A DNA stretch of 64,000 bases from an uncultured Alphaproteobacteria bacterium (GCA_963826945.1 CAWGYY010000004.1:222399-286398); one strand, 5' to 3'; counted from the stretch's first letter, positions 5,717-50,131 are shown. Program-made: numbers and translations. The notes: generated from the sequence alone by a model not told the origin.

Positions 5717-6217
5717 GTGAAAAAACTAGCCGCCGCCGGCTTCGAAATGAAAAACCTCAGTGTTGTCGGCAAGGGATATCAAACCGACGAAAAGGTCGTC
5801 GGCTTCTACAACGAGGGTGACCGGATCAAGTTTTGGGGCAAGCGGGGTGCGTTCTGGGGCGGTCTCTGGGGCATGTTCTTTGGCGGGCTGTTCCTGACCA
5901 TTCCCGTTGTTGGGCATGTCATCGTGCTAGGATATCTGGCCTCCATGGCGATCTACGGCATCGGGAATGCTATCGTGGTTGGCGGGCTAAGCGCGCTCGG
6001 TGCAGCGCTCTATGGCATCGGCGTGCCGAAGGACAGTGTGATCCAATACGAAACCGCTGTGAAAGCCGATAGTTTTCTGGTGATGGCGCACGGCCCGGCT
6101 GAGGAAGTGGCTCGTGCCAAGGCGATCCTCGGTACGCTCAAGCCTTCACGCCTTGATGTGCATGCAGGCGTGAAAGCGGCGGAGCCGGCAGGTCATCTCG
6201 CCCATGCGGGTGGCTGA
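5717..6217 (+). CDS. general-stress-type membrane protein (YflT/DUF1269-like N-domain plus Gly-rich TM region)
   Basis: AAVKKLAAAGFEMKNLSVVGKGYQTDEKVVGFYNEGDRIKFWGKRGAFWGGLWGMFFGGLF. Homology appears to continue upstream to 5657, where no ATG/GTG/TTG exists (see findings). Confidence 0.75.
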   Translation: MKKLAAAGFEMKNLSVVGKGYQTDEKVVGFYNEGDRIKFWGKRGAFWGGLWGMFFGGLFLTIPVVGHVIVLGYLASMAIYGIGNAIVVGGLSALGAALYGIGVPKDSVIQYETAVKADSFLVMAHGPAEEVARAKAILGTLKPSRLDVHAGVKAAEPAGHLAHAGG

Positions 6218-27138: not shown

Positions 27139-30100
27139 ATGTCCAAAAATCCAGTAGGGGCAAGATTCAACCTCGCCCCACCGTCGCGTGCTCGTGAACA
27201 CCTCATGCCTAAGCGTCTAATCAAGAGACAAGCGACCCATTCGCGTAAGGCCAAAACGGTGCGGCCGCGATCGAGCCGGCGCTCGCTTGCGGCGCGTAGC
27301 CCTCGTCGCGGCAGTGGGGAATTCCCGGTTGTCGGAATAGGCGCTTCGGCGGGTGGCCTTGATGCTTGCCGGAAGCTCATGGACGCGCTGCCCGCGGGCA
27401 GCGGCATGGCCTTCATCCTCGTCCAGCATCTCGATCCGACCCACGAAAGCATGATGGTGGAGCTACTGGCCGGCCACACGTCGATGAATGTGCGGCAGGC
27501 AACGGATGGAATGCCGATCGAGCGCGACCACCTCTACGTCATTCCGCCCGGAACCTATCTGTCTGTCGGCGACGGCGCCCTGCATCTTTCCCAGCCCCAG
27601 GCGCGTCATGGTTCGCGACTGCCTTTCGATTTTTTACTCCATTCATTGGCGGAAGACTACGGCAAGCGCGCCATTTGCGTGGTTCTCTCAGGAACAGGGG
27701 CCGACGGCAGCCTTGGTCTGAAGGTCGTGAAGGAAAAAAACGGGCTCGTCATCGCGCAGGACCCTGACGAGGCCAGCTATGATGGCATGCCGCGGAACGC
27801 GATCATGACGGGCGCCGTGGACCTTGTGCTTCCGGTGGCCAAGCTTCCTGAAGCGCTCGTCAAATACGGTCGGCGAATGGCGCTTTCTCGCAAGCAGAAC
27901 AATTTGCGCCCGCAGGATGTGCCGGAGGACCGCTTGGCCCAGATCGTCGATCTCCTGCGCACGAAAACCGGCCATGATTTCAGGCTTTACAAGCCAGGCA
28001 CGTTGCGGCGCCGGATCGAGCGGCGCATGGCGATGGCGGAGATCAAGACCGATGATATGGATCGGTATCTCGAACTGCTGCGCAACGATACAAGCGAGCT
28101 CGGTCTTCTTGCCAAGGACTTGCTCATCAATGTCACCAGCTTCTTCCGCAATCCGAAGGTTTTCGATTTTTTGGCGGAGAAGATCGTTCCCGAGCTGGTC
28201 CGCCACCACACGTCCAATGACCCGCTACGCATCTGGATTGCCGGGTGCAGCACAGGCGAGGAGGCTTATTCCCTTGCCATGCTCTTCCATGAACAGAGCA
28301 CTGCGGCCAAGCGCAACGTCAAACTGCAGGTCTTTGCCTCCGACGTCGATCCGGATGCTGTAGCGCACGCCCGCGAAGGTCTCTACCCGGAAATGATCGA
28401 GGCAGACGTGTCGGCGGCTCGACTAGCCCGCTTCTTTTCGAAGGACGGTCACAATTACAGAGTAACGCCCGAACTGCGTGCGGCGGTGGTCTTCACGGTA
28501 CAGGATGTGCTGACCGATCCGCCCTTCTCACGTCTCGACTTTGTTTCGTGCCGCAATCTTCTGATCTATTTGCGCCCCGAGGCACAGGCAAAAGTCATCT
28601 CGCTTTTCCATTTTGCGCTGCGCGAAGGCGGCCTTCTCCTTCTTGGCACCGCGGAGACAGTGGGCAACGCCACCGATCGCTTCGAGGCGATCGCCAAGCA
28701 GGAGCGGCTCTATCGGCACATCGGTCGCAGCCGGCCGGGAGAGCTTGGCTTTTCGCTGAGCGGCGGTGACGGCGTGCGAGTTCCCGCGCGCCCGGCACAA
28801 GGCCAATTGCCCTCGCACCAAGCCGCTCTCGCCGATCTTTGCCGACGGCTGCTACTGGAGACCTACGCGCCGGCGGCGGTCCTGATCAACCGCAAGCACG
28901 AGTGCCTCTATTCCTTGGGACCGACAGACCGTTACCTGCGCGTGGCGCCGGGACACCCTACTCAGGATTTGCTCGCCATGGTGCATCAGGGGATGCGTAC
29001 CAAGCTCAGGTCAGCAATCCAGTTGGCGAGCCAAGAGTACGCACGAATAGTCGTCCCCGGCGGGCGGACGAGCCACGGCCGCAATCCAGGCTCGTTCAGC
29101 ATGGCCGTACAGTCGGTTCTGAGCGAAGGCGAGGAGCTTCTGTTGATTTGCTTCATCGACGAGCCGATGCAGGAGCGGAGACAAGGTCGCCCGACCGCTC
29201 CGGGAGACGTTCCGCGGGTTGCCGAGCTCGAGCGGGAACTCGAAGCCACCAGAACCGAGCTCGAAGGTGCCATCCGGAACCTTGAGATTTCGAACGAAGA
29301 GCAGAAGGCGGCCAACGAAGAAGCATTGTCCAACAACGAGGAATACCAAACGACGAACGAGGAGCTACTGACGTCGAAGGAGGAATTGCAGTCGCTCAAC
29401 GAGGAACTTACCGCCCTCAATAGCCAGCTCCAGGAAACCCTGGAGCGGCAGCGTACGACCTCCAATGATCTGCAAAATATCCTGTACAGCACCGATGTTG
29501 CGACGATCTTCCTCGACACCAACCTGAATATCCGCTTCTTCACGCCTGCAACTAAAGCGCTCTTCCATGTCATTCCCAGCGACGTCGGGCGGCCGCTCGC
29601 AGACCTTAGCTCGCTAGCAGCCGATAACGCCCTTCTGGCGGATGCCCGAACGGTGCTGCAAACCCTCGCGCCGATCGAGCGAGAAATCAAAGCTCAGAGT
29701 GGCGCCTGGTACATCCGTCGCGTGTTGCCGTACCGCACCCAAGAGAAGGGTGTGGACGGCGTAGTCATCACCTTTGTCGAAATCACCGAGCGCAAGCACA
29801 TAGCGGAGGCACTGGAGACGGCAGAGCGGCAAGCTGAGCTGGCCAATGCCGCTAAATCACGGTTTCTCGCTGCCGCGAGCCATGACCTGCGGCAGCCGCT
29901 GCAAACGCTCAAGCTAGTGCAAGGCATCTTGGCCAAGAAGATCAAGGAGAACAAGAACGACGAAGCCTTGCAGCTGGTCACACGGCTCGACGAGGCGGCG
30001 GCCGCTATGGCGGGCATGCTGAACGGGCTGCTTGACATAAACCAGATCGAGGCTGGCATTGTCCACGCCGAAATGGTCAGTTTCCCAATCAAGGGTTTGC

Positions 30101-31623
30101 TTGACCGATTGAGAGATGAGTTCGCCTATCACGCGCAAGCAAAGCGGCTTGCCTTGCACGTGGTCTCGTGCGGCCTTTCGATACATAGCGACCCGCGTCT
30201 GCTCGAGCAGATGATCCGCAACCTGCTTGCCAACGCCGTGAAATACACCAAGCGCGGCAAGGTGCTGCTCGGTTGCCGTCGCCGCAAAGGCGTGTTGAGC
30301 ATCGAAATCTGGGACACCGGAATTGGCATCCCCGACAATGAACTGCAAACGATCTTCGAGGAATACCATCAGCTCGACAATGCCGCGCGTGAACGCAGCC
30401 GTGGGCTCGGCCTTGGTCTCTCCATCGTGCAACGCCTGGGGAATTTGCTGGGTCATCGGGTAAGCGTCCGCTCACATCCGGGCAAGGGCTCAGTCTTCGC
30501 CATCGAGGTCATGCTCGCACCGAGCGGAACGGCACCGCAACTTGCGCACTATCGGCGGGGCAAAGATGACGAGGTAGTTGAAGGCGTTCGCCGCACTGGC
30601 GCGATCCTGGTCGTCGAGGACGATCCCGACGTGCGCGAATTCCTCACGTTCGCCCTCAAGGACGAGGGCCATCGTGCGATAGCGGCGCCTAACGGTATCG
30701 CAGCGCTGAAACTGGTCGCGCGCGGGACGGTCCGACCTGACCTTATCCTCGCAGACTACAATCTGCCAAATGGTATGGACGGGCTCCAGGTCATCGCGAA
30801 GCTGCGGGAAAAACTTCATCGCCAAATCCCGGTCATCATTCTGACCGGTGATATCTCAACCGACACCCTGCGCGATATCGCTCGCCATGACTGTGTGCAG
30901 CTCAACAAGCCAGTGAAGTTGAAGAATCTGGCACAAGTCGTCCAACGCCTCCTCCCAGTAGCGCAATCCGCAGCGCATCCTCACGCTCAGTACCCCGCGG
31001 AAGCAGCCAGCACTCCGGAACCGCGGCTCATTTTCGTCATCGACGATGACAACCATGTACGCGATGCGATACGCGCGGTGCTCGAAGAAAATGGCCAGAG
31101 CGTCGAAGATTATCCGACGTGCGAGGCATTCCTCGAAGCCTACCGTCCGGGCCGCGGAGCATGCCTCTTGATCGATGCCTACTTACCCGGAATGACCGGC
31201 CTCCAATTGCTGCAGCGGTTCCATGATGCGGGCCATCGGCTGCCGGCGATCATGATCACTGGCAATGCCGACGTGTCGATGGCGGTTCAAGCCATGAAGG
31301 CCGGCGCTTCGGACTTCATCGAGAAGCCAATCGGCCGCACCGAACTGGTCGCCAGCGTCGAGCGAGCTCTCGAACAGGCGCGGGATTCGAGCAAGCTATC
31401 CGCCTGGCGGGAGGCTGCGGCGAACCGCATCGCGGGCCTAACTCACCGAGAGCGCCAGATCATGGAATTGGTCCTCGCCGGCCATCCCAATAAGAACATC
31501 GCCGCGGAACTAGGCATCAGCCAACGCACTGTCGAGAACCATCGCGCTGCAATCATGAAGAAAACCGGCTCGAAGTCTCTTCCGGCGTTGGCCCGCTTGG
31601 CCCTTGCCGCCGGCGTGGGATAG
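27139..31623 (+). CDS. CheB methylesterase - CheR methyltransferase - coiled coil/PAS - HisKA/HATPase - REC - REC - LuxR HTH fusion protein
   Basis: 1494-aa intact ORF. CheB: VVGIGASAGGLDA...SGTGADGS. CheR: RIWIAGCSTGEEAYSLAM. Heptad region: EEYQTTNEELLTSKEELQSLNEEL. HK: AAASHDLRQPL and DTGIGIP...GLGLGLSIV. Two receivers: VVEDDPD...ILADYNLP and FVIDDDNH...LLIDAYLPG. HTH: LTHRERQIMELVLAGHPNKNIAAELGISQRTVENHR. Confidence 0.85.
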   Translation: MSKNPVGARFNLAPPSRAREHLMPKRLIKRQATHSRKAKTVRPRSSRRSLAARSPRRGSGEFPVVGIGASAGGLDACRKLMDALPAGSGMAFILVQHLDPTHESMMVELLAGHTSMNVRQATDGMPIERDHLYVIPPGTYLSVGDGALHLSQPQARHGSRLPFDFLLHSLAEDYGKRAICVVLSGTGADGSLGLKVVKEKNGLVIAQDPDEASYDGMPRNAIMTGAVDLVLPVAKLPEALVKYGRRMALSRKQNNLRPQDVPEDRLAQIVDLLRTKTGHDFRLYKPGTLRRRIERRMAMAEIKTDDMDRYLELLRNDTSELGLLAKDLLINVTSFFRNPKVFDFLAEKIVPELVRHHTSNDPLRIWIAGCSTGEEAYSLAMLFHEQSTAAKRNVKLQVFASDVDPDAVAHAREGLYPEMIEADVSAARLARFFSKDGHNYRVTPELRAAVVFTVQDVLTDPPFSRLDFVSCRNLLIYLRPEAQAKVISLFHFALREGGLLLLGTAETVGNATDRFEAIAKQERLYRHIGRSRPGELGFSLSGGDGVRVPARPAQGQLPSHQAALADLCRRLLLETYAPAAVLINRKHECLYSLGPTDRYLRVAPGHPTQDLLAMVHQGMRTKLRSAIQLASQEYARIVVPGGRTSHGRNPGSFSMAVQSVLSEGEELLLICFIDEPMQERRQGRPTAPGDVPRVAELERELEATRTELEGAIRNLEISNEEQKAANEEALSNNEEYQTTNEELLTSKEELQSLNEELTALNSQLQETLERQRTTSNDLQNILYSTDVATIFLDTNLNIRFFTPATKALFHVIPSDVGRPLADLSSLAADNALLADARTVLQTLAPIEREIKAQSGAWYIRRVLPYRTQEKGVDGVVITFVEITERKHIAEALETAERQAELANAAKSRFLAAASHDLRQPLQTLKLVQGILAKKIKENKNDEALQLVTRLDEAAAAMAGMLNGLLDINQIEAGIVHAEMVSFPIKGLLDRLRDEFAYHAQAKRLALHVVSCGLSIHSDPRLLEQMIRNLLANAVKYTKRGKVLLGCRRRKGVLSIEIWDTGIGIPDNELQTIFEEYHQLDNAARERSRGLGLGLSIVQRLGNLLGHRVSVRSHPGKGSVFAIEVMLAPSGTAPQLAHYRRGKDDEVVEGVRRTGAILVVEDDPDVREFLTFALKDEGHRAIAAPNGIAALKLVARGTVRPDLILADYNLPNGMDGLQVIAKLREKLHRQIPVIILTGDISTDTLRDIARHDCVQLNKPVKLKNLAQVVQRLLPVAQSAAHPHAQYPAEAASTPEPRLIFVIDDDNHVRDAIRAVLEENGQSVEDYPTCEAFLEAYRPGRGACLLIDAYLPGMTGLQLLQRFHDAGHRLPAIMITGNADVSMAVQAMKAGASDFIEKPIGRTELVASVERALEQARDSSKLSAWREAAANRIAGLTHRERQIMELVLAGHPNKNIAAELGISQRTVENHRAAIMKKTGSKSLPALARLALAAGVG

Positions 31624-37194: not shown

Positions 37195-38059
37195 TCACTT
37201 GTTGTGAACCGAAGGTTGGCGGCTTCGGATCGCCGCATCTGGATTTTGAATGATACTTACTTCCGTTTGCGGTTGGGCAAGTCGCAGCTTGCTGTCCGAC
37301 GCGTATGCGAGCACTTGCGCGAGCGCGTCGCTTTGAGCTGACGGGATGTCTGCAAAGTCGGCCACGTAAAATGACACACAGTAAGACGCCGACCGGCCTC
37401 GAATTGCCTGTACGGTAACTTCTGGCAGTGGATCGCTTAGCACATGCTTTGCGTTGCAAACCGCCGAGACGAGGGCCGTCTCCGCCGTGTCTGCTGACGA
37501 GCCCGCTTCGATATCGACGTTGATGCTGCTAGGGTGGACCCTTTCGGGCAAACTGTGGTTGGTCACGCGTGACTTGGCGATCTGGCTGTTCGGAATAACC
37601 ATGGTGTCGCCGTTTCGGTCGCGAACCCGCGTCGCCCGCCAGTTGATTTCGATGACTTGCCCCTCGTTACCTCCGTCAACGCTTATCCAATCACGTCGCC
37701 AACAGTCCCTCAATCGGCTGGTGAAACGCATATTTCAGTATCCCGAAGGCCGCCGCAAGATAGATCAGGCCTGATACAAGATCGGAAATGATCTTGCGCC
37801 GCCGGGGTTGACGGTCGAACGGAAACAAAAACCGAGGTGTTACATGCCTGAGCAGGTTCGCAGCAAGCCAAGCGGCGAGATACCACCAAGCGATAATAAT
37901 GATAGCAAGGAGAATGTCGCCCGAATGAGGAGCCACGTCCTCTACTAGGCGGTGGAGATAAGTCTGCGCCAACAGAACGCCGGTGAGCACAACTAAGGCA
38001 GTCGCAGCGGCGACAAGCACGCCGCCAGCCCTCTTTTGACCAATGCGTCGGTCGTCCAT
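37195..38059 (-). pseudogene. MscS-family mechanosensitive channel with an internal out-of-frame deletion at about 37693
   Basis: The N-part ORF 37691..38059 ends ...IEGLLAT*. The C-part in ORF 37195..37731 resumes DWISVDGGNEGQVIEINWRATRVRDRNGDTMVIPNS. The roughly 30-35 aa expected between them (pore helix TM3) are missing. Confidence 0.65.
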
Positions 38060-38203
38060 GGGCGAAGATATCTCCCATCACCCAAGTTGTCGCTAACCCC
38101 CGCAGATCTTTCGCAGCAATGCCCGAAAGCGAAGATCGCCGAGAGCAGCGTCGAAGGCCGTACACAGGGGGATTCTCCAGATCCCGCTCTTAGCACATTC
38201 TCT

Positions 38204-38650
38204 TTATTTCGACTGTGGCACTTTCGGCAGAGTCGTTTCGCTCTTGACGGTTTTGAAGTTCTCACGTGCGCGAGCTATGGCGGTCTTTTGATCTTCTGCG
38301 CTCAAATCGCGAAGTGACGCGTCAGCGTTAACCGCTTTCGCTGTGGTCACGCGCGCGCGAGGCTGGCGGCACGATGGTGAGGTCGCCGGCCTGCGCCGTC
38401 GCCAGTTCTTTTTAGCGGATTGTTGTTGGCAGATTCCAAGTTCGGGACGACGATGGAGGTCGGTCAGCAGAGCGACCCGCTCGCGCCGCCTGGACGGTGC
38501 TACGGCTGCTGATGACGTCGCCGATTCCTTTTTCGTGATTTCCGCCCGAGCTCCATCGTCGCGATCGGTTGGCGCGACCGACGCCGATGTCGGCTTGGCC
38601 TGGTCGGGCGGCGGCGATGATGTCGGCGGCCGCCGGCGCGGCGCGAGCCA
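38204..38650 (-). CDS. doubtful hypothetical ORF abutting the tandem array
   Basis: Only the C-terminal approx 45 aa (VNADASLRDLSAEDQKTAIARARENFKTVKSETTLPKVPQSK) look protein-like. The upstream part is Arg/Pro-rich and may be off-frame. The track ORF extends into repeat unit 1. Confidence 0.25.
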   Translation of the reverse strand, partial: WLAPRRRPPTSSPPPDQAKPTSASVAPTDRDDGARAEITKKESATSSAAVAPSRRRERVALLTDLHRRPELGICQQQSAKKNWRRRRPATSPSCRQPRARVTTAKAVNADASLRDLSAEDQKTAIARARENFKTVKSETTLPKVPQSK

Positions 38651-38693
38651 CGGGGTCATCGGCAACAGATCGGAAATTCTACAGCACTTACGT

Positions 38694-41600
38694 CTCAATG
38701 TCGAGCTCTCTCTCCCGAATTTTGGGCTGCCGCGCTCGCGGTCTTTATCCCTTGGCGAGGGGCTGCCGGATTCGACCGGCGCTCGGGATGGCACCCGCGC
38801 TGCTGGTGTGTTGGATCGCGGGCGGCGGCGGCTTTTTTCTTTTTAGCGTTGTGGCCGTCGAGCCACCGGGTCGATCGCGGCCGGCACCTGGCGTCGTCGA
38901 CCTTCGCTGGGGTACTCAATGTCGAGCTCTCTCTCCCGAATTTTGGGCTGCCGCGCTCGCGGTCTTTATCCCTTGGCGAGGGGCTGCCGGATTCGACCGG
39001 CGCTCGGGATGGCACCCGCGCTGCTGGTGTGTTGGATCGCGGGCGGCGGCGGCTTTTTTCTTTTTAGCGTTGTGGCCGTCGAGCCACCGGGTCGATCGCG
39101 GCCGGCACCTGGCGTCGTCGACCTTCGCTGGGGTACTCAATGTCGAGCTCTCTCTCCCGAATTTTGGGCTGCCGCGCTCGCGGTCTTTATCCCTTGGCGA
39201 GGGGCTGCCGGATTCGACCGGCGCTCGGGATGGCACCCGCGCTGCTGGTGTGTTGGATCGCGGGCGGCGGCGGCTTTTTTCTTTTTAGCGTTGTGGCCGT
39301 CGAGCCACCGGGTCGATCGCGGCCGGCACCTGGCGTCGTCGACCTTCGCTGGGGTACTCAATGTCGAGCTCTCTCTCCCGAATTTTGGGCTGCCGCGCTC
39401 GCGGTCTTTATCCCTTGGCGAGGGGCTGCCGGATTCGACCGGCGCTCGGGATGGCACCCGCGCTGCTGGTGTGTTGGATCGCGGGCGGCGGCGGCTTTTT
39501 TCTTTTTAGCGTTGTGGCCGTCGAGCCACCGGGTCGATCGCGGCCGGCACCTGGCGTCGTCGACCTTCGCTGGGGTACTCAATGTCGAGCTCTCTCTCCC
39601 GAATTTTGGGCTGCCGCGCTCGCGGTCTTTATCCCTTGGCGAGGGGCTGCCGGATTCGACCGGCGCTCGGGATGGCACCCGCGCTGCTGGTGTGTTGGAT
39701 CGCGGGCGGCGGCGGCTTTTTTCTTTTTAGCGTTGTGGCCGTCGAGCCACCGGGTCGATCGCGGCCGGCACCTGGCGTCGTCGACCTTCGCTGGGGTACT
39801 CAATGTCGAGCTCTCTCTCCCGAATTTTGGGCTGCCGCGCTCGCGGTCTTTATCCCTTGGCGAGGGGCTGCCGGATTCGACCGGCGCTCGGGATGGCACC
39901 CGCGCTGCTGGTGTGTTGGATCGCGGGCGGCGGCGGCTTTTTTCTTTTTAGCGTTGTGGCCGTCGAGCCACCGGGTCGATCGCGGCCGGCACCTGGCGTC
40001 GTCGACCTTCGCTGGGGTACTCAATGTCGAGCTCTCTCTCCCGAATTTTGGGCTGCCGCGCTCGCGGTCTTTATCCCTTGGCGAGGGGCTGCCGGATTCG
40101 ACCGGCGCTCGGGATGGCACCCGCGCTGCTGGTGTGTTGGATCGCGGGCGGCGGCGGCTTTTTTCTTTTTAGCGTTGTGGCCGTCGAGCCACCGGGTCGA
40201 TCGCGGCCGGCACCTGGCGTCGTCGACCTTCGCTGGGGTACTCAATGTCGAGCTCTCTCTCCCGAATTTTGGGCTGCCGCGCTCGCGGTCTTTATCCCTT
40301 GGCGAGGGGCTGCCGGATTCGACCGGCGCTCGGGATGGCACCCGCGCTGCTGGTGTGTTGGATCGCGGGCGGCGGCGGCTTTTTTCTTTTTAGCGTTGTG
40401 GCCGTCGAGCCACCGGGTCGATCGCGGCCGGCACCTGGCGTCGTCGACCTTCGCTGGGGTACTCAATGTCGAGCTCTCTCTCCCGAATTTTGGGCTGCCG
40501 CGCTCGCGGTCTTTATCCCTTGGCGAGGGGCTGCCGGATTCGACCGGCGCTCGGGATGGCACCCGCGCTGCTGGTGTGTTGGATCGCGGGCGGCGGCGGC
40601 TTTTTTCTTTTTAGCGTTGTGGCCGTCGAGCCACCGGGTCGATCGCGGCCGGCACCTGGCGTCGTCGACCTTCGCTGGGGTACTCAATGTCGAGCTCTCT
40701 CTCCCGAATTTTGGGCTGCCGCGCTCGCGGTCTTTATCCCTTGGCGAGGGGCTGCCGGATTCGACCGGCGCTCGGGATGGCACCCGCGCTGCTGGTGTGT
40801 TGGATCGCGGGCGGCGGCGGCTTTTTTCTTTTTAGCGTTGTGGCCGTCGAGCCACCGGGTCGATCGCGGCCGGCACCTGGCGTCGTCGACCTTCGCTGGG
40901 GTACTCAATGTCGAGCTCTCTCTCCCGAATTTTGGGCTGCCGCGCTCGCGGTCTTTATCCCTTGGCGAGGGGCTGCCGGATTCGACCGGCGCTCGGGATG
41001 GCACCCGCGCTGCTGGTGTGTTGGATCGCGGGCGGCGGCGGCTTTTTTCTTTTTAGCGTTGTGGCCGTCGAGCCACCGGGTCGATCGCGGCCGGCACCTG
41101 GCGTCGTCGACCTTCGCTGGGGTACTCAATGTCGAGCTCTCTCTCCCGAATTTTGGGCTGCCGCGCTCGCGGTCTTTATCCCTTGGCGAGGGGCTGCCGG
41201 ATTCGACCGGCGCTCGGGATGGCACCCGCGCTGCTGGTGTGTTGGATCGCGGGCGGCGGCGGCTTTTTTCTTTTTAGCGTTGTGGCCGTCGAGCCACCGG
41301 GTCGATCGCGGCCGGCACCTGGCGTCGTCGACCTTCGCTGGGGTACTCAATGTCGAGCTCTCTCTCCCGAATTTTGGGCTGCCGCGCTCGCGGTCTTTAT
41401 CCCTTGGCGAGGGGCTGCCGGATTCGACCGGCGCTCGGGATGGCACCCGCGCTGCTGGTGTGTTGGATCGCGGGCGGCGGCGGCTTTTTTCTTTTTAGCG
41501 TTGTGGCCGTCGAGCCACCGGGTCGATCGCGGCCGGCACCTGGCGTCGTCGACCTTCGCTGGGGTACTCAATGTCGAGCTCTCTCTCCCGAATTTTGGGC

Positions 41601-43037
41601 TGCCGCGCTCGCGGTCTTTATCCCTTGGCGAGGGGCTGCCGGATTCGACCGGCGCTCGGGATGGCACCCGCGCTGCTGGTGTGTTGGATCGCGGGCGGCG
41701 GCGGCTTTTTTCTTTTTAGCGTTGTGGCCGTCGAGCCACCGGGTCGATCGCGGCCGGCACCTGGCGTCGTCGACCTTCGCTGGGGTACTCAATGTCGAGC
41801 TCTCTCTCCCGAATTTTGGGCTGCCGCGCTCGCGGTCTTTATCCCTTGGCGAGGGGCTGCCGGATTCGACCGGCGCTCGGGATGGCACCCGCGCTGCTGG
41901 TGTGTTGGATCGCGGGCGGCGGCGGCTTTTTTCTTTTTAGCGTTGTGGCCGTCGAGCCACCGGGTCGATCGCGGCCGGCACCTGGCGTCGTCGACCTTCG
42001 CTGGGGTACTCAATGTCGAGCTCTCTCTCCCGAATTTTGGGCTGCCGCGCTCGCGGTCTTTATCCCTTGGCGAGGGGCTGCCGGATTCGACCGGCGCTCG
42101 GGATGGCACCCGCGCTGCTGGTGTGTTGGATCGCGGGCGGCGGCGGCTTTTTTCTTTTTAGCGTTGTGGCCGTCGAGCCACCGGGTCGATCGCGGCCGGC
42201 ACCTGGCGTCGTCGACCTTCGCTGGGGTACTCAATGTCGAGCTCTCTCTCCCGAATTTTGGGCTGCCGCGCTCGCGGTCTTTATCCCTTGGCGAGGGGCT
42301 GCCGGATTCGACCGGCGCTCGGGATGGCACCCGCGCTGCTGGTGTGTTGGATCGCGGGCGGCGGCGGCTTTTTTCTTTTTAGCGTTGTGGCCGTCGAGCC
42401 ACCGGGTCGATCGCGGCCGGCACCTGGCGTCGTCGACCTTCGCTGGGGTACTCAATGTCGAGCTCTCTCTCCCGAATTTTGGGCTGCCGCGCTCGCGGTC
42501 TTTATCCCTTGGCGAGGGGCTGCCGGATTCGACCGGCGCTCGGGATGGCACCCGCGCTGCTGGTGTGTTGGATCGCGGGCGGCGGCGGCTTTTTTCTTTT
42601 TAGCGTTGTGGCCGTCGAGCTACCGGGTCGATCGCGGCCGGCACCTGGCGTCGTCGACCTTCGCTGGGGTACTCAATGTCGAGCTCTCTCTCCCGAATTT
42701 TCGGCTGCCGCGCTCGCGGTCTTTATCCCTTGGCGAGGGGCTGCCGGATTCGACCGGCGCTCGGGATGGCACCCGCGCTGCTGGTGTGTTGGATCGCGGG
42801 CGGCGGCGGCTTTTTTCTTTTTAGCGTTGTGGCCGTCGAGCTACCGGGTCGATCGCGGCCGGCACCTGGCGTCGTCGACCTTCGCTGGGGTACTCAATGT
42901 CGAGCTCTCTCTCCCGAATTTTCCGGCTGCCGCGCTCGCGGTCTTTATCCCTTGGCGAGGGGCTGCCGGATTCGACCGGCGCTCGGGATGGCACCCGCGC
43001 TGCTGGTGTGTTGGATCGCGGGCGGCGGCGGCTTTTC
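38694..43037. repeat. tandem array, 221-bp unit x approx 19.6 copies, near-identical, non-coding
   Basis: ORF-track entries recur with an exact 221-nt offset (38919, 39140 ... 42676). I read the units directly. The only variants seen are at 42621, 42702, 42842 and 42923-42924. Every frame has stops. Confidence 0.97.
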
Positions 43038-43117
43038 AATAAAGGGAAACAAGGCGATTGCTGACCAACCGCCCTTGCTCAAGCCTTTCTACAAAGAGTC
43101 ACGATTCCAACGAACGT

Positions 43118-43666
43118 CTACGCGTCAGCAATTGGATTATGCAAAGACTCAATTATTATGCAGTCAAGAAAACCGTCGAATTCCGACTTTTGACGGTCTT
43201 TCAACATGTAGCTGATCCAGCCCGCGTTTGCACCGTCGCGGACAAGAATTCTGCCGTAACCCCACTCGACCTTCGCCCAACAGTCGCGGATCAAGTTTTC
43301 GAGGGCAATAGCATCGAAGTGCGAGGGCAATTCAATTGCACAATGAATATGCCATCGACCTGTTGACGCGCCACGCTCCCATGAACGTAGTCCGCGGGCG
43401 CGGACCTCGCCTTTTTCCAGTACGGGTAATACACGAAGACGTTTGCCGTGCCGACGAAATGCAGATCCATATGCAGCTCTGTTGAGGAGGTTCATGAAGT
43501 GCCGAAAAGCGTGTCTGCACCGATAGTCGTCGGTCTTTACCCAACCGCCGCTGTCGGGCTGGTGGCCTTGCTTCAAGGTTAGCGTGACGTCGCAAAAGTC
43601 ACCCCAGCTGCTCGTATCGAACAAGTTTGATTTGGCGGATTCAAACGGATCAGATCGAACTTCCAT
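43118..43666 (-). CDS. HUH-type rolling-circle Rep-like protein (inovirus Gp2-like layout)
   Basis: 182 aa with motif I FCDVTLTLK, motif II GRWHIHCAIE (H-U-H) and motif III GWISYMLKD (Y-x-x-K) in the canonical order. Confidence 0.55.
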   Translation of the reverse strand: MEVRSDPFESAKSNLFDTSSWGDFCDVTLTLKQGHQPDSGGWVKTDDYRCRHAFRHFMNLLNRAAYGSAFRRHGKRLRVLPVLEKGEVRARGLRSWERGASTGRWHIHCAIELPSHFDAIALENLIRDCWAKVEWGYGRILVRDGANAGWISYMLKDRQKSEFDGFLDCIIIESLHNPIADA

Positions 43667-44138
43667 CGAATAGTTATTCGCATGTGTTACAGAGGTGATT
43701 TCACGAAGCTGCGAAAGCGACTTACAGCTTTCCGGAATTTATCGTCGGAGGCGGCATGCGGCCATCCATTACTCAGGGTACTGGTTCGAATTCAAGAAGC
43801 ATTAGCTCTCGCCGCGGTCTTTTTGTATTGTATAGTGAGCGCAGGGTTATGGGAATGCCCATTTTGCAACGGCGCGCCATCGAAAAAGTGCGACCGGCGT
43901 AGGTACACGCGGCGTTTCTTCGTGGAAGGCCTCACGGCAGTCGCTTGAGACCGGCGAGTTGTAGCTCTTTGCCGATCTCGCGGATCTCAAGGAGGCAAAG
44001 AGGTTGTCGGTTCGTAAAGCCGGCGGGCGACGAAGATCTCACCTCATGAAATGGACCCGCGATCGTGACGCGCTTTCGCATTCTTGGCAATTTGCAGATG
44101 TTGGATCCGATAGCGTAGTTCGAAAATGTCGAGGAACA

Positions 44139-45281
44139 CTACTCTTTTGCCTCCCGAATCATTCTCGAACCCGCCTTCCACTTCCTGGCTTTGACGCTTG
44201 CGGCCGTATTATATTCGGGCTTCTTGGTCACGTCACCGATGACAAGTACGCCTCCCTCGCGCGGAGCTTTGATCTTCGGGTGCTTGCCCCACTTTTCTGG
44301 ACGGTGCCACTCCAACCAAAACCGCATCGCCTTCATGTCCACTTTGCGAACGGTCTCTGGTATAGGGTTTCCGTTCTCATCCCTCAGGTAGGCGTCAGGG
44401 CCTTGATAACCGTGGTCCACGAGACCCTGGTCGATCTTGTAGACCACACGGCCTCGATAGCTTAGAACTTTGTCATAGCCAACAAATGCCCTTTCGAGCA
44501 TGCGGTCGAGGAGTTTTTGAACTGCCTCGTCGATCGCTAATTTGCAGAGTTCGTGAAATCTCCCCGTAATGTCTTGCCACTCGATGTCGTAACCGTCGTC
44601 GCCAGCCTCGCTGCGCCTTATCCAGTACGCAAGCGTCTTGCGGTGAATGCCCGCCTTGTTCGCTGCGTAATAATAAAAAGGGCATTCCGCGAGGGCGTCG
44701 AGGACAAGCAACATGAGCTCAGGGCAAAGCTTTGGGGTGGATCTCGCGATCCCCGCCGGCGGTTTTTGCTTCTTGAGTTGGCCCCGGCCGCTACGAACTC
44801 GTTTGCCGCCAATCGCCGCGAGTGCGGTTGTCTCTGTTTTAGGTTTCTCGGCCTCACTCGTGGCCTCCTTGCCGGCGGGCAGCGGCTCAGCTTTCGGCGT
44901 GGGCAGCGATGTCGGCTCGTGTGGAGGCGAGTGGTCTCCGGCCGGAACCTCGACCAACCCAGCGTGGTCTTCACCGTCGCCTTGCGGTTTTTCTGTCGTG
45001 AACTCGCATGCCGTTTTGAATTTGGGCGGCGCCTCGTTCTTGAGCAGCTCGATCGCGATCGGTTCAGCGTCCGTCACTTTCTCAGGCGATGCCCGGTGCG
45101 CGCGCAGCGCTGCGCCCTCCGGCGAGGTTTGGCTCACCATCGTTGTGGGGTCCCAAGTTCCTTCGCGCTTGCGGTGAAGTTCCTCGTGCTTGGCGACAAG
45201 TCGCCTCGTGGCGAGCGGCGCGGGGATGTGCTCAGTCATAGCATCCTCCTTCGATTCCTTGTCGCTCTTCTGCACGGGCAA
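44139..45281 (-). CDS. phage-derived protein with terminase-small-subunit-like C-terminal half
   Basis: 380 aa. The N-half is low-complexity and acidic/Pro-rich. The C-half reads ECPFYYYAANKAGIHRKTLAYWIRRSEAG...VDMKAMRFWLEWHRPEKWGKHPKI, an HTH plus the RKW..K.YG tail typical of small terminase / DNA-packaging proteins. Confidence 0.55.
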   Translation of the reverse strand: MPVQKSDKESKEDAMTEHIPAPLATRRLVAKHEELHRKREGTWDPTTMVSQTSPEGAALRAHRASPEKVTDAEPIAIELLKNEAPPKFKTACEFTTEKPQGDGEDHAGLVEVPAGDHSPPHEPTSLPTPKAEPLPAGKEATSEAEKPKTETTALAAIGGKRVRSGRGQLKKQKPPAGIARSTPKLCPELMLLVLDALAECPFYYYAANKAGIHRKTLAYWIRRSEAGDDGYDIEWQDITGRFHELCKLAIDEAVQKLLDRMLERAFVGYDKVLSYRGRVVYKIDQGLVDHGYQGPDAYLRDENGNPIPETVRKVDMKAMRFWLEWHRPEKWGKHPKIKAPREGGVLVIGDVTKKPEYNTAASVKARKWKAGSRMIREAKE

Positions 45282-45833
45282 GAACGACGCGTTATCCGGG
45301 GAAGTATTTCAGCGGTTCTGTTCGAGCCAGGAGAGGGCATTGCGCGCAAACGCCGATGTCGACGTCACCAGATCGGACAGCTTATTTGTTGTTAGGAAAT
45401 CCGCGTCATCGCGGAGGTTCGACCTACTGACGCACCGCGAGGGCCGTGGGATCGGTCGGCGACTTACTACGGGAGTCGACCCCTGCAGTCGGAAGGCCCA
45501 TGCCCTCCAGGACAATTGCGTCCACAAGTCGTATCCCAATTATGGTGATTTGCGCTGCCATTTTCAAGATCGCGCATCTGCCTCTATCCATCTCTATCCC
45601 ACCGTAAGAGGCCATCTCCCGCGCGGTCAGTGGTGCCGGTATTAAGCCGGACAGAGGGGATTTCAGGGAATTCAGGCCTCTATTGGGGTGCAGTACTCGC
45701 GTCGAAACAGTTTCGACCGCGAAGTTAATGCCGCGCCAGTGGCCGTGGGTTCGACGGCGGTCTTTTCAATTCCTAAGAGAGAATTTTGCCGTCTTCTCGG
45801 GGCTTGCCGTGGTCGGCGGTATCCGGTCAAGCC

Positions 45834-46532
45834 TCAGTTGCCTGGAGCTTCGTTATTTGTCGAAATTCCTGGACCGGCGGTAGGCAAACTCAGACCCACA
45901 TTGGAGAACGGCAGTAATACGTGTCTCAGTTCAATATGGATTTTATTGGCCCGTTGGTGGCCCGTCGCGAAACGCTCGATACCCGCTATTGGTTGCGCCG
46001 AAGTAGGACCGGTAATGAGGCCTAATGGGACTTTCTGCGCGGCGACTGCTGCACCTAACTGTTTCAAGGCAAAGCCCAAGTCACCATCCATTACATATCC
46101 TAACATGCAGCCAACTGGGAGACCCTCCGCGTATTGCTCGGTTAGAAACCGCATCATCCCGTCGTTGACATAGCGTGTGGCCAGAGAGGCCCTGCCGTTA
46201 TTGGTAACATTCAGGCGCTTGCACTCATATGCGAGATATCGCTCTCGCTCCTGGTCTAACAGAACCGCGAAATCTATCTTGCCCTTGCTGAACTTCGCGC
46301 CGCCCGGGTGGGTTCCAAACGGCTCATGCTGATAGATCACCAGGTGGCAAATGCGCCTGACAATGGCATCTTTGGAAAGGAGATGAACGAGGTTGATTGT
46401 GATGGTGTCTTCTTCCGGCTGGCCGGATAACAAAGCTACGCACGCTGGCCAATGATGCAGGATGCGTTGCAAGAAACGCTCGTCGACCGTGATGAAGCGA
46501 TCCTTCCAGACTTGAGGATTGCCGACGATCAA
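45834..46532 (-). CDS. putative PD-(D/E)xK restriction-endonuclease-like protein
   Basis: 232 aa. Candidate catalytic pattern GKIDFAVLLDQERERYLAYECKRL (D ... E-x-K). The TTG start overlaps the stop of the upstream methyltransferase (TTGA). Confidence 0.55.
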   Translation of the reverse strand: MIVGNPQVWKDRFITVDERFLQRILHHWPACVALLSGQPEEDTITINLVHLLSKDAIVRRICHLVIYQHEPFGTHPGGAKFSKGKIDFAVLLDQERERYLAYECKRLNVTNNGRASLATRYVNDGMMRFLTEQYAEGLPVGCMLGYVMDGDLGFALKQLGAAVAAQKVPLGLITGPTSAQPIAGIERFATGHQRANKIHIELRHVLLPFSNVGLSLPTAGPGISTNNEAPGN

Positions 46533-49500
46533 GAAGCTCGCTCCCGACGAGCGTCAAGATCGATCGCGTGTTGCAGGTCCCCAGCGATCGAATCCGCATC
46601 GGACAAGGCGGCTGATCGCAGCCAAAAACGTCGCTGCATCGGCTTTACGAGATAAAGATTCTTACCAATGAAAACACGTAAGTCCGGCATTAGCTGGAAA
46701 TTGCCTGCGATAGGTTGATGAATGTGCTGCATAATTCTCGACAACGCATCGCCGAGAAGAACAACATCTTCCTCATTGTAGGCTAGTCCCTGATCGGAGC
46801 CGTTAAGGGCCAAACGCAGCACCCCAATATCCGCATTTTTGGCTTCGAGAGTGGCGTGAAGGCGATTTCCGCCCTGCAACCACTCATCGACACTACGCAT
46901 CAACGTTGCGGCATATTCTCGTCGCTCAGGTTCGGTAGGCGACTTCCATAAATCGGGGAAACTGCCTTGGTGCGGCTGAACGGCGGGCATTATGCGTTCA
47001 ATCATGTCATCGATGAGAATGATCTCATCATTGGACAGGCAAAAGTATTCGTAGGACCATCTATCGATTTCAGAGAGCGTCGTGCTGTCGTTCTGATCTG
47101 ATGTAAGCGGCAAGCCGAGGTTCGCGATCTCCCGATCGATCACAGCAATCAATTTTTCAGACGCAGCTTCCGCCCGTCTCGGCTCTGGCAGATCGCCGGA
47201 TGATGGAAACGGCAAATGGAGCAACTCCGACTGCTTCACCTCCGGCCGCTCCGAACCAAATGAAGCCGTGCCGTGGAATGCAAACCAGGCGGCGACCCGG
47301 CTATTGAGCAACGCCGCAAGAAGCTTGCCCCTTGCCTTTTCAGCGGGCGGGACAGTGACGCCCTGAATGATGTCCTGGAACGTCAGATCAGTTTCCGTGT
47401 ATGAAGCGCGAAGGCGCCCAAGAGAGGTCGTGCGGGGCACGAGAATGCGCGCACCCGAGAACGCAGCTTCAAAGCCTTTTCGGCGAACGCGTTTCGAGTG
47501 CGCTGGCCGGAGATAGGAAACCGTCTGCGCGATGGGACGGAAGGCGTCGATGGGCAGGTCGGGAAGCGTACCAACGAGCTTGCTCATCGAATATTTGGAA
47601 GGGCGCTGACCTTCCTGCGGTTCATTGTATGGCTGATAGCCCATTCCAATGACCCATTGCCCAGCCGCGCTTTGCCGACTACGACTGAGGCTCCCGTATT
47701 CTTTTATCAGGAAGCTAAGCCTCGGTAATTGCGAAAAATAGCTGAAGAGCTTTGCCTCAGGTTCGTGCATCCATAAACGACGTTTGAAGGCCAGGGCGTC
47801 GGACTGCGCGCTGGTTGAAGTCATGATGAACCTATCCGCGCTGCTGAGCGTGATCATTCGCTTGATTTGTAGGTTCAAATCGGCCTTCGGTGCCCAATAT
47901 TCAAAGTGATATTCGGAATCTTGTTCGTGATTAGGTACGTACATAATCAGAGCGGTCGGGCGGATGGCGCCGTCGAACAATTGGAAACGCAAGTCAGCGA
48001 AATTGATAATCCGACGGACGCGGCTTTCCCGAATGAGGCGCTTGCGGGCTGAAAGTGAACTGTCGGCGTGATTGTGTAGGAAGCCCATTGCCGGAAGGAG
48101 AAAGGCAGCTAATCCATCAGGTCGCAGGAGCCGCAAAGCCTTCCACACAAAGGCCCATGCGTCTTCGCGGCCCGGCATTGGCAAGCCATGCTTCCGGCAC
48201 CATCGTACGGATGAACGGTTGGGGCCGCGCCAACTCGTCCAGGGTGGGTTTCCGACGATCACGTTGAAGACAGATGTCGCGGGGTCGGAATCGTCAAAGA
48301 AATCACGGTGAACAAGCGTGTCGCCCCAAAGTTCGGGCAGTATCTTCTTGTTCTTGACCAACACGCGAAGATCGGGCGGTTCCACCTCTTCGAGAAGGGC
48401 TACATACAACGAAAAGACGGCGACCCGTACTGCGCCTCCATTGAGATCCCATCCGTGAATGCGCCGCAGCATGGCGACCAAGCTGTCCCAACGAATTTTT
48501 TTGGCCCGGTGCCTTACTCTCCAATTCTCGCAAAGCCGTTGAAACGAACGCACCAAAAAGACGCCCGAGCCACATGCCGGGTCGAGGAACTGGCCCCTTT
48601 CTTTAACCACTGGAGAGAGTAACTCCCAAAACTGCGAGACCACGGTATCCGCGAGATACATGGGTGTGTAGTACGCGCCTTGCGCTTTACGGTCTTCCTC
48701 CCGCTCACCGAGAAAGCGATCATAGACTGCGCTTACCAATTCGATTGGAATGAAACGAAAGTCGTATCCCCAAAATCGATATTGACCACCCTTCGCCATT
48801 TCCTCGCGTCCGCTTCGAAAGCTCGCAAGCACGTCAAGGTGTTCCACTTTAACTGATGGTGCTTTTGCGCGCGGATCGAACGAGCACGGCGCGACGAAAA
48901 GATTGCCGTTGAAATCATCTTTAAGCGTCGCAAATAGCAAGCTGAGATATTTCACATCTCTCCGTGCGAGCAACGATGAAAAGCTATCGGCCGCGTCGCG
49001 AGTCGCGTCCTTAAAATAATCCGCGGTGATGATTTTCCTATCTTCAAGATAAGCAATAAACATCGTCTGAATGAGCAACGCTTGCGCAGCGTCGGGCGAC
49101 AGGCTTTTGCAAAGCGATTTATGCAACTCGGTCAGGTTGTCGAGCAGAACTTGGTCAATGCGCTCCTTCGGCCGAAAGAAATCCGCATGTTCCTTCCAGA
49201 GGCGCCCGGATTCCGCTCCATAGACAATATTGCAAATCTTAAGTGCGTCGGCGGTAGCGTTGAGCGCCTCAATCAGGCAGCGTTGATCAAACTCATGGCC
49301 CCACTCTCTCTGAGGTGTTCTTGCAAGAGAATAAGCGCGTAGCGTGTCGCCAGCCGTAACGAGAAGAAGACTAGCGAGACCCTGGTTCCAGAGCGCACCG
49401 TGAATATTGACAACGCTTGCTGTGTCGAACTGGGCGACGTTCAGAAGCGCGATCGTTGGGACACCTTGAACGCAAAAGATACCCGACAGGCCGAGTTCGT

Positions 49501-50131
49501 CGAGTGCGGTACGGATCGCCAGCGCATGAGGCGTGTCTACTACCGCGTCGGCTGTCTCGTAGAACTCCGGCGCATGCCGGTTGGCAAGGCTTAGCCGTTC
49601 TTTCCATTCCGGCGCCAGCGGAAGCGCGCTCACCTCACTCATGCCCGTTGCCTCCGCGCTCGTCTTTCGTGTGCGGAGAGTCGGAATAGATGGACGCTGC
49701 TGACTGGCGGCCAAGGGAAGCGTGCGAGACATCGCGTCTCGCACCAAGGCAATAATGGGGCTTAGCGGACAAACGATGACGAGGTTCTGACCAGTAGGCT
49801 CTTGGGTGGCTTCTATAATTCGGCAGGTTCGCTGCTGAATATCCACAAGGAGTGTTTTGCCTTCCAGCGTGACCCACGAATTGGCGTTGCAAATTTCCAC
49901 CGCCGCCTGAGAGATTTCCGGCAATAGGCCGACGCGAATGCCGCATTGATCGGTCAGGCGCCGAAGTATGCCGGCCGCGAGCAGATCGTCGATTGAAAAT
50001 CGGGAGGAATATCTTTTGCGCTGAGCGAATGGGGGCAAAACGCGCTTCCAGTGGCGAAATGTTTCCACCGAAATGCCGAGCGTGCTGCGAAGCTGAGTTT
50101 GGCTGAATTCCACGGGCCCAATCCCAAACAA
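46529..50131 (-). CDS. large gamma-class N6-adenine DNA methyltransferase (type IIG/IIL- or PglX-like) with N-terminal MerR-like HTH extension
   Basis: 1200-aa intact ORF. Motifs: GAYYTPMYLADTVV, motif I LDPACGSGVFLV, motif IV VIVGNPPWTSW. Helical region: LLIQTMFIAYLEDRKII. N-terminal approx 160 aa: QTQLRSTLGISVETFRHWKRVL...RFSIDDLLAAGILRRL. Confidence 0.85.
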   Translation of the reverse strand: MFGIGPVEFSQTQLRSTLGISVETFRHWKRVLPPFAQRKRYSSRFSIDDLLAAGILRRLTDQCGIRVGLLPEISQAAVEICNANSWVTLEGKTLLVDIQQRTCRIIEATQEPTGQNLVIVCPLSPIIALVRDAMSRTLPLAASQQRPSIPTLRTRKTSAEATGMSEVSALPLAPEWKERLSLANRHAPEFYETADAVVDTPHALAIRTALDELGLSGIFCVQGVPTIALLNVAQFDTASVVNIHGALWNQGLASLLLVTAGDTLRAYSLARTPQREWGHEFDQRCLIEALNATADALKICNIVYGAESGRLWKEHADFFRPKERIDQVLLDNLTELHKSLCKSLSPDAAQALLIQTMFIAYLEDRKIITADYFKDATRDAADSFSSLLARRDVKYLSLLFATLKDDFNGNLFVAPCSFDPRAKAPSVKVEHLDVLASFRSGREEMAKGGQYRFWGYDFRFIPIELVSAVYDRFLGEREEDRKAQGAYYTPMYLADTVVSQFWELLSPVVKERGQFLDPACGSGVFLVRSFQRLCENWRVRHRAKKIRWDSLVAMLRRIHGWDLNGGAVRVAVFSLYVALLEEVEPPDLRVLVKNKKILPELWGDTLVHRDFFDDSDPATSVFNVIVGNPPWTSWRGPNRSSVRWCRKHGLPMPGREDAWAFVWKALRLLRPDGLAAFLLPAMGFLHNHADSSLSARKRLIRESRVRRIINFADLRFQLFDGAIRPTALIMYVPNHEQDSEYHFEYWAPKADLNLQIKRMITLSSADRFIMTSTSAQSDALAFKRRLWMHEPEAKLFSYFSQLPRLSFLIKEYGSLSRSRQSAAGQWVIGMGYQPYNEPQEGQRPSKYSMSKLVGTLPDLPIDAFRPIAQTVSYLRPAHSKRVRRKGFEAAFSGARILVPRTTSLGRLRASYTETDLTFQDIIQGVTVPPAEKARGKLLAALLNSRVAAWFAFHGTASFGSERPEVKQSELLHLPFPSSGDLPEPRRAEAASEKLIAVIDREIANLGLPLTSDQNDSTTLSEIDRWSYEYFCLSNDEIILIDDMIERIMPAVQPHQGSFPDLWKSPTEPERREYAATLMRSVDEWLQGGNRLHATLEAKNADIGVLRLALNGSDQGLAYNEEDVVLLGDALSRIMQHIHQPIAGNFQLMPDLRVFIGKNLYLVKPMQRRFWLRSAALSDADSIAGDLQHAIDLDARRERAS

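Follow-up and report, generated by a model that had tools for sequence, protein, structure and literature searches.

A 64,000-nucleotide stretch of DNA from an uncultured Alphaproteobacteria bacterium (GCA_963826945.1 CAWGYY010000004.1:222399-286398; hereafter called the "window") carries a 4.3-kb tandem array of a 221-bp unit beside the gene for a small replication initiator, Rep. We found that the array is real, non-coding DNA, and that the Rep gene, a predicted rolling-circle origin, and an array of this kind form a module that recurs over many loci. It seems well supported that the array is a non-coding satellite located just 3′ of a rolling-circle origin and made of the oriented modules of that replicon. 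Concerning its nature, we propose that the array is an amplified, origin-adjacent segment of an integrated rolling-circle replicon, which is driven by recombination and consists of cis-acting modules with a putative role in origin use. We assign this reading a probability of roughly 0.5. The coordinates of the features are collected in Table 1.

Table 1. Features of the array, the adjoining module and the island in the window
Feature	Position	Strand	Basis or remarks
Degenerate single-copy modules between array and chromosome	38327..38693	-	367 bp; ending GCCTCGCGCGCGCGTGACC...GCGGTTAAC
Tandem array, 221-bp unit, 19.65 copies	38694..43036	none	Tandem Repeats Finder and unit comparison
Conserved hairpin AGGGCGGTTGGTCAGCAATCGCCTT (43075-43051), invariant 3′ tail GCCTTGTT, then TTCCCTTTATTG	43037..43075	-	Conservation and compensatory changes
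Predicted plus-strand origin core, ACGTTCGTT / GGAATCGTGACTCTT (slash, predicted nick)	43094..43117	-	Directly 3′ of the Rep stop; M13 comparison
Predicted 182-aa HUH rolling-circle initiator (Rep)	43118..43666	-	Motif I VTLTLKQ, motif II RWHIHCAIE, motif III YMLK
380-aa protein	44139..45281	-	No Pfam family; PHROG "terminase small subunit" family, E 2e-9
Island cargo: 232-aa protein and 1200-aa type IIG restriction-methylase	45834..50131	-	

The array is a non-coding satellite

Tandem Repeats Finder called the whole segment as one array, with a period of 221, 19.6 copies, 99% matches, 0% indels, and a score of 8649. When the units were compared base by base in the phase starting at 38698, units 1-17 were letter-identical; this interior identity and the exact copy number depend on the assembly and its polishing, and consensus polishing could have removed small interior differences. 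The variants are limited to four at the right edge (C>T at 42621, G>C at 42702, C>T at 42842, and G>CC at 42923-42924), and the right end of the array is GGCTTTT, at 43036/43037. Read on the Rep strand, which is the minus strand of the window, the array consists of a 141-bp core and an 80-bp linker repeated 19 times and then one further core, and its Rep-proximal end is position 43036. Each unit contains GGGCTGCCG, GTCGAGC, and GATCGCGG twice and GANTC once. The G+C content is 66% in the array, as compared to 59.5% in the window as a whole, and the array is strongly A/T-skewed. A preliminary description of the window, made from the sequence alone, had reported the array with its copy number, its short repeats, its right end, and the confinement of the variants to the right edge, and had interpreted the variant edge copies as a sign of amplification in situ; our comparison bears out all of these points.

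The edge variants are graded toward the family consensus (TTTTCCGG to TTTTCGG to TTTTGGG, and GTAGCTCG to GTGGCTCG), and the 17 identical units are therefore the derived state. This pattern is as expected from unequal exchange or slippage. In the arrays of other loci the variants lie at either edge, and the idea that a divergence gradient marks the end at which units are added was discarded, as no consistent direction was found.

The array has no coding capacity. Stops occur in all six frames, 221 is not a multiple of 3, and, in an endless concatemer, the open runs reach at most 220 aa on the plus strand and 122 aa on the minus strand. The 196-aa and 106-aa open reading frames (ORFs) recur every 221 nt, as the preliminary description had noted in arguing against a repetitive surface-protein gene. 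It had also considered that relatives might hold the unit in frame within such a gene. Among 40 arrays, the period modulo 3 is uniform (12:13:15), and only four arrays are open in any frame.

We also looked for RNA products. ARAGORN detected no tRNA or tmRNA in the array, and no Rfam family matched at its gathering score, with only chance-level matches at E<=10; the arrays of nine other loci likewise contain no Rfam family. In each unit, on the strand opposite to Rep, a G+C-rich segment precedes a T run, which had been taken as a possible terminator or small RNA 3′ end. Consensus scans called no terminator at this segment and no promoter-like site in the unit. The folding of one unit, which had been suggested as a check for structure, was no better than that of shuffles (z -0.4 to -1.0; as DNA, z -0.44), and RNAalifold found no consensus structure on 39 diverse modules. 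The proposal of a terminator or small RNA in each unit is thus not supported. Entire 221-bp units are identical and there are no unique spacers, which distinguishes the array from CRISPR, and the unit has no BLAST match in plasmid and phage records.

The unit stretch at 38757-38794 resembles a tRNA T-arm and acceptor 3′ end on the Rep strand (GCCGGTCGAATCCGGCAGCCCCTCGCCA) and a tmRNA 5′ end on the other strand (GGGGCTGCCGGATTCGAC). Despite this resemblance, descent of the unit from a tRNA or tmRNA was rejected, given the ARAGORN and Rfam results. The 3′ ends of the tRNA genes located upstream of Rep at other loci are not repeated in the arrays.

The adjacent gene encodes a predicted HUH initiator

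The gene that ends 80 bp from the array had been described as Rep-like, and this was confirmed and specified. Its 182-aa product is predicted, from its motifs and a structural model, to be an HUH rolling-circle initiator of the single-stranded DNA phage type. Motifs I (uuTu), II (HUH), and III (YxxK) are present in this order and are kept over an identity range of 35-97%. In an alignment down to 35% identity, His106, His108, Tyr153, and Lys156 are at least 90% conserved. The Pfam family REP_ORF2-G2P (PF23343) matches the window Rep weakly (23.6 bits, below the cut-off of 27.8; E 6.6e-5), and many homologs have a precomputed match to it. The homologs number more than 1000, in 969 clusters at 50% identity, and none is named by its source.

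The AlphaFold model reached a mean confidence (pLDDT) of 85.4 with the alignment down to 35% identity, as compared to 53 with close homologs only. Its best structural matches are Microviridae replication initiators (E ~1e-6 to 1e-5, probability 1.00). BFVD yielded 83 matches at E<=1e-3, the named ones being Microviridae replication initiators with TM-scores of ~0.45-0.5. Among solved structures there was no match below 1e-3, with the origin-binding domain of the adeno-associated virus (AAV) Rep at E 0.019, and a sequence search of the PDB returned no match. No relatives were found in PLSDB plasmids, INPHARED phages, or IMG/VR, and a search of 50,697 phage records gave no detectable sequence match. 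There was no Pfam match to the Y1_Tnp domain.

A predicted origin lies between the gene and the array

Nearly all of the related loci continue from the Rep stop with TAG ACGTTC(T/G)TT GGAATCG GACTCTT, followed by a hairpin with the invariant GCCTTGTT. The core is conserved in 58 distinct sequences, and its family consensus, ACGTTCTTTGGAATCGGACTCTT, equals the M13 sequence ACGTTCTTTAATAGTGGACTCTT (M13 5772-5794) at 17 of 23 positions. The common positions include blocks of 9 nt and 8 nt with equal spacing. The M13 origin reads ACGTTCTTT before the nick and AATAGTGGACTCTT after it; the nick made by the gene II protein falls between 5780T and 5781A, and the recognition sequence of this protein extends from 5777 to between 5791 and 5809 (PMC5405960). 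The two M13-like blocks therefore straddle the nick site. By analogy with M13, we infer that the sequence 3′ of Rep is the plus-strand origin of the element, with a predicted nick between 43109 and 43108. A BLAST search of the origin region against phages gave chance matches only.

The pairing of the hairpin is kept through compensatory changes in three loci (L074, L098, and L100). The array begins directly after TTCCCTTTATTG, 14 nt past the hairpin, and occupies the side of the origin toward which leading-strand synthesis would run. No second origin copy flanks the element, except in L020 and L027, which have complete second Rep copies; an arrangement like that of CTX prophages, with a flanking second origin, was therefore ruled out. 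In L020, L027, and L033/L037, two co-oriented Rep-origin modules lie ~3.7-9.6 kb apart, as tandem or neighbouring copies of the element.

The gene-origin-array module recurs over many loci

A scan of one genome per species yielded 78 Rep-encoding loci. All are in soil metagenome-assembled genomes (MAGs) labelled Alphaproteobacteria, Xanthobacteraceae, Pseudolabrys, or Bradyrhizobium, often with several loci per MAG. An array, defined as at least 2.5 copies at 90% identity or more, is present downstream of Rep in 34 of the 56 loci with at least 1.5 kb of downstream sequence (~60%). It starts within 300 bp of the Rep stop in 29 of these 34, typically after 74-103 nt. The unit is locus-specific, with a length of 110-563 bp, 2-19 copies, and 90-100% identity. 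The association is one-sided: with the placement of two loci corrected, 39 arrays were found in 387 kb downstream of Rep, versus none in ~470 kb upstream. Many of the related contigs terminate inside arrays. In the literature we found no description of this module, nor of a bacterial counterpart to the arrays of Helentrons, and thus no earlier description of the association between the arrays and Rep with its origin.

What do units of such different lengths have in common? The units of different loci share the sequence boxes GCTAAAAAGGAATCGGCG, CCAAGGGATAAAG, AGCCGGAAAT.TCGGAGAGAGAGCACG, GACCCCGTAGCTCGC, GCCTCGCGCGCGCGTGAGG, and GGTTAACGCGG, and variable G+C-rich, hairpin-prone stretches lie between them. 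Downstream of Rep, four non-palindromic boxes are found almost exclusively on the Rep strand (302/15, 180/5, 107/0, and 93/3 for the Rep versus the opposite strand). Their orientation is thus fixed relative to the double-strand origin, and it persists among elements whose Rep proteins are 72-99% identical. In the window, the module motifs occur only downstream of Rep. Arrays tend to stop at identical box ends, and position 38327, where the element itself stops, is likewise the end of such a box, GCGGTTAAC. The spacing between the two main boxes falls into two classes, 8-11 and 17-19 bp; a promoter composed of these boxes was rejected on account of this variation.

The preliminary description had also raised the possibility of an amplification product of a rolling-circle element. 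An array made of repeated origins is not what we observed: in local alignments, the units match the origin no better than shuffled units do (mean z -0.1 forward and +0.6 reverse). It had further advised a search for a single-copy progenitor in relatives. In L059, a single 141-bp core adjoins the origin, which points to the single-copy module as the ancestral state and to a later amplification. As for the skew, the Rep strand contains more A than T in 36 of 40 arrays.

The array is unstable at this chromosomal site

We compared haplotypes among metagenome contigs with a 99-100% identical chromosomal flank (the side of the MscS, response-regulator, and aquaporin genes); four of the haplotypes derive from one sample. 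While the window has 19.6 copies of the 221-bp unit, L087 has 12.6. In L089, 3.5 copies are accompanied by a hybrid unit fused to a class-B module, and the cargo is a CBASS defence system, not the restriction-methylase. L002/L088 combines at least 13.6 copies with a 129-bp array of 4.6 copies. L005 has 8.3 copies of a 249-bp unit, and its Rep DNA is 81% identical to that of the window. L090 and L092, with Rep DNA 84-86% identical, have 482/484-bp arrays and an IS110 insertion. Copy number and unit composition therefore differ between near-identical strains.

L091 retains two units and has a 10-kb deletion corresponding to window positions 39137-49180. Its junction, between 6977 and 6978, joins window 49181 to 39136, so that the deletion runs from the restriction-methylase gene into the array and removes Rep and the origin. 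As a deletion derivative, L091 was rejected as a progenitor of the array.

The module forms one end of defence-carrying islands

The junction between the element and the chromosome lies between 38326 and 38327. The array had been placed at the border of an island-like segment beside the Rep-like gene, in agreement with this position, and the Rep-origin-array block is one end of small integrative islands. At the position of the restriction-methylase cargo, L089 (1-4536) carries CBASS (patatin, E2, SMODS), BrxR, and an SMC-like protein. The element thus behaves as a defence-island carrier.

Upstream of Rep, the 78 loci contain a helix-turn-helix (HTH) protein that is like the phage small terminase subunit and related to the 380-aa protein of the window (35 loci), tyrosine integrases (17), HTH_17 excisionase-like proteins (8), and tRNA genes (~10). 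A Ku homolog is located there in 28 loci, on the same strand as Rep (e.g., L064 4789-5715), and one distant Rep homolog (P0310) carries a fused DNA-ligase C-terminal domain (PF04679). The two observations hint that the Rep family is linked to end-joining proteins.

The preliminary description had listed a centromere with sopC-like logic among the candidate roles. No ParA or ParB Pfam family was matched in the scanned island ORFs, and searches of NCBIfam, PHROGs, and PADLOC revealed nothing relevant. Considering also the unit lengths in related loci, a partition site of the sopC, parC, or parS type is not indicated.

At this chromosomal site, the Rep gene ends in 10-11 nt (GCTGACGCGTA, 43119-43129) that recur at the junction (GCTGACGCGTC, 38316-38326). 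The origin and the array are thus bracketed by a 10-nt direct repeat, and the junction is common to several diverged variants of the element. The idea that arrays in general have a direct repeat of the Rep 3′ end (GCTGACGCGT) at their far end was rejected, because this repeat is confined to the site described here.

IS110-family transposase genes lie in the module region or the Rep 3′ end in 9 of the 78 loci. The insertion sites include one common to L004, L090, and L092 (corresponding to the window between 38414 and 38415), and those of L043 and L075, near Rep codon 173. These positions suggest that IS110 elements preferentially target the conserved module and Rep-end sequences.

The related contigs are long-read metagenome assemblies, and frameshift-split genes are present in the region. 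Past the junction, a mechanosensitive-channel gene on the minus strand is split into two overlapping frames (37195-37731 and 37710-38165). The same or a different split occurs in related contigs, and probably reflects either a frameshift or a homopolymer error of long-read sequencing. Elsewhere in the window, and unrelated to the array, positions 27139-31623 (plus strand) encode a 1494-aa fusion of CheB, CheR, PAS, histidine kinase, receiver, and LuxR-type HTH domains.

Formation and possible role of the array

How might such an array form, and what might it do? We propose that the arrays lengthen and shorten by recombination between direct repeats, through unequal exchange or copy-choice slippage. 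Strand displacement initiated by Rep may favour this recombination, as the array would be the stretch that is most often single-stranded. The boxes would be cis-acting sites that are read as sequence rather than as a fold, and putatively serve as docking sites at which a protein, from either the element or the host, assists or restrains the use of the origin. Possible roles are the priming of the complementary strand and an enhancer or brake of initiation, and amplification would multiply the docking sites. We favour protein-docking sites because conservation is seen in the boxes, which have a fixed orientation, and not in folds. The function of the modules is the weakest step of this interpretation.

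Several observations weigh against it. Amplification is not required for the module, as 22 of the 56 loci lack an array, and the distant homologs L098 and L100 have an origin-like hairpin and no array. The presence of an array is uncorrelated with HTH, Ku, or integrase genes. The excess of A over T and of C over G on the predicted displaced strand is the opposite of that expected from cytosine deamination of exposed single strands. With a G+C content of 62-71%, the units are unlike the A+T-rich enhancer of M13, and their lack of detectable structure is unlike classical single-strand origins.

The absence of arrays from these loci and from the distant homologs also bears on a different account, in which the array is a functionless by-product: the modules beside the origin would be decaying or neutral DNA, and the arrays a selfish or neutral satellite generated by slippage and unequal exchange in a stretch prone to recombination. 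A unit length that appears unconstrained, a copy number free to vary among near-identical strains, with hybrid units and deletions, and the lack of fold, promoter, and coding capacity are all what such a satellite would display. It would account for the amplification, but not for boxes that keep one orientation while Rep diverges, nor for the absence of comparable arrays upstream of Rep, and we consider it rather unlikely. The conservation of boxes without a conserved fold, together with their two spacing classes, could instead point to a titrating or pairing array, acting in an iteron-like control of Rep, as a partition centromere, or as a packaging (pac) site for the terminase-small-subunit-like protein encoded nearby. 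The 8-mer GGAATCGG, located 3′ of the predicted nick, is found again downstream, on the Rep strand, in 12 of 42 loci, versus 1-3 in controls, as a titrating array might predict; however, the 221-bp unit of the window lacks this 8-mer, and the units are not significantly similar to the origin region (mean z ~0). Arrays also show no link to the HTH gene, being present in 18 of the 26 loci that have it and in 16 of the 30 that lack it, no ParA/ParB family was matched in the scanned island ORFs, and known iterons and centromere repeats are much shorter, at roughly 7-43 bp. We therefore regard this account as improbable.

An array might also be a template for products, either unit-length single-stranded DNA circles made by Rep or a small RNA from each unit. 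Rep is predicted to be of the nick-and-join type, tandem origins allow single-stranded circles to be released from the chromosome, as in CTX prophage arrays, and the G+C-rich segment with its T run could end a transcript. Against this, the units contain nothing like an origin or a nick site, and the searches for terminators, promoters, Rfam families, and conserved structure described above were negative; such a template is very improbable. Finally, the array could be an assembly artefact, namely the expansion of a repeat present once or twice, or reads of an extrachromosomal concatemer stitched into the chromosome. The visible frameshift errors of the long-read assemblies, the many contigs that end within arrays, and an interior identity that polishing could have made perfect would fit an artefact. 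This account has to contend with the independent assembly of the 221-bp unit, at differing copy numbers and with unique sequence on either side, from other samples and contigs (L087, L089, and L091), with the same layout at more than 30 other loci in many MAGs, and with the ordered series of edge variants, and we give it hardly any credence.

A bolder reading is that Rep itself builds and remodels the arrays, in which case a bacterial HUH enzyme would be coupled to a dedicated, fast-evolving satellite. We consider this a speculative idea with rather low odds. If true, the arrays would supply amplified DNA, or act as a programmable store of cis-sites, for an integrative defence-island or satellite element, to be used in replication, transfer, or phage interference. 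They would also represent a bacterial counterpart of the link between Helentrons and satellites, and a new class of Rep-dependent hypervariable loci.

Bacterial chromosomes rarely contain long arrays of near-identical units of 100-500 bp, and such arrays are usually written off as assembly noise. In the present case, they are tied to a single gene family and a single type of origin at dozens of loci in soil Xanthobacteraceae MAGs, with several arrays per genome and with differences between strains that occur together. The length of short-read contigs of the Rep gene, mostly 1-2 kb, is also explained by these findings. The module offers a testable system for examining how rolling-circle initiators shape the DNA beside their origins and what origin-adjacent accessory DNA does, and it draws attention to an uncharacterised Rep family at the edge of islands carrying defence systems.

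Comparison with known systems

The Ff phages (M13/f1/fd) share with the element an HUH initiator, probably of the same Pfam family, REP_ORF2-G2P, and a nick-site core, ACGTTCTTT, with the block GGACTCTT, spaced as at M13 5772-5780 and 5787-5794 (Domain A). A nick-site and recognition sequence of this type lies beside the initiator gene here, and accessory DNA follows 3′ of the core, where M13 has the Domain B enhancer. In contrast to the Ff phages, Rep has 182 aa and no detectable sequence match in the phage records, no phage morphogenesis genes were seen here, and there are no IMG/VR relatives. Moreover, the origin is located downstream of the gene, and the accessory DNA is G+C-rich and tandemly amplified.

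The single-strand origins of rolling-circle plasmids and the Ff minus-strand origin resemble the units in being non-coding, strictly oriented to the double-strand origin, ~130-300 nt long, and variable between replicons. Known single-strand origins are strongly folded and single-copy, whereas the units here are not detectably structured, are located downstream of the nick rather than upstream, and are amplified. Iteron or incompatibility arrays (P1 incA and the ori of Staphylococcus aureus pathogenicity islands, SaPI) are likewise direct repeats beside an initiator gene and an origin, and their variable repeat number could tune initiation. Iterons are ~17-22 bp long and match the binding site of the initiator in the origin, whereas the units here, of 110-563 bp, are unrelated to the origin.

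The mosaic of short modules near an HUH protein recalls REP/BIME-RAYT and the Neisseria NIME/dRS3 repeats (with Nf prophages and Piv/IS110-type recombinases), and IS110-family insertions recur in or beside the modules here. REP/BIME and NIME/dRS3 repeats are scattered over the genome and vary from one unit to the next, while the modules described here occur essentially only downstream of Rep and form arrays of identical units, and Rep has no Pfam match to the Y1 transposase domain of RAYT (IS200/IS605 type).

The closest analogy that we found is with eukaryotic Helentrons. In their non-autonomous forms, monomers of 100-500 bp make up satellite-like arrays, and the repeat differs from family to family (PMC7492417). 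Like the element described here, Helentrons and HINEs are HUH rolling-circle elements with a short tandem array of 100-500-bp units near one end, and combine conserved flanks with a family-specific repeat unit (PMC7492417). They differ in being eukaryotic, in encoding Rep-helicase fusions, and in bearing their arrays in dispersed non-autonomous transposons (PMC7492417). In the bacterial element, for which no transposon ends were identified, Rep has no helicase, and the array stands directly beside the Rep gene and its predicted origin.

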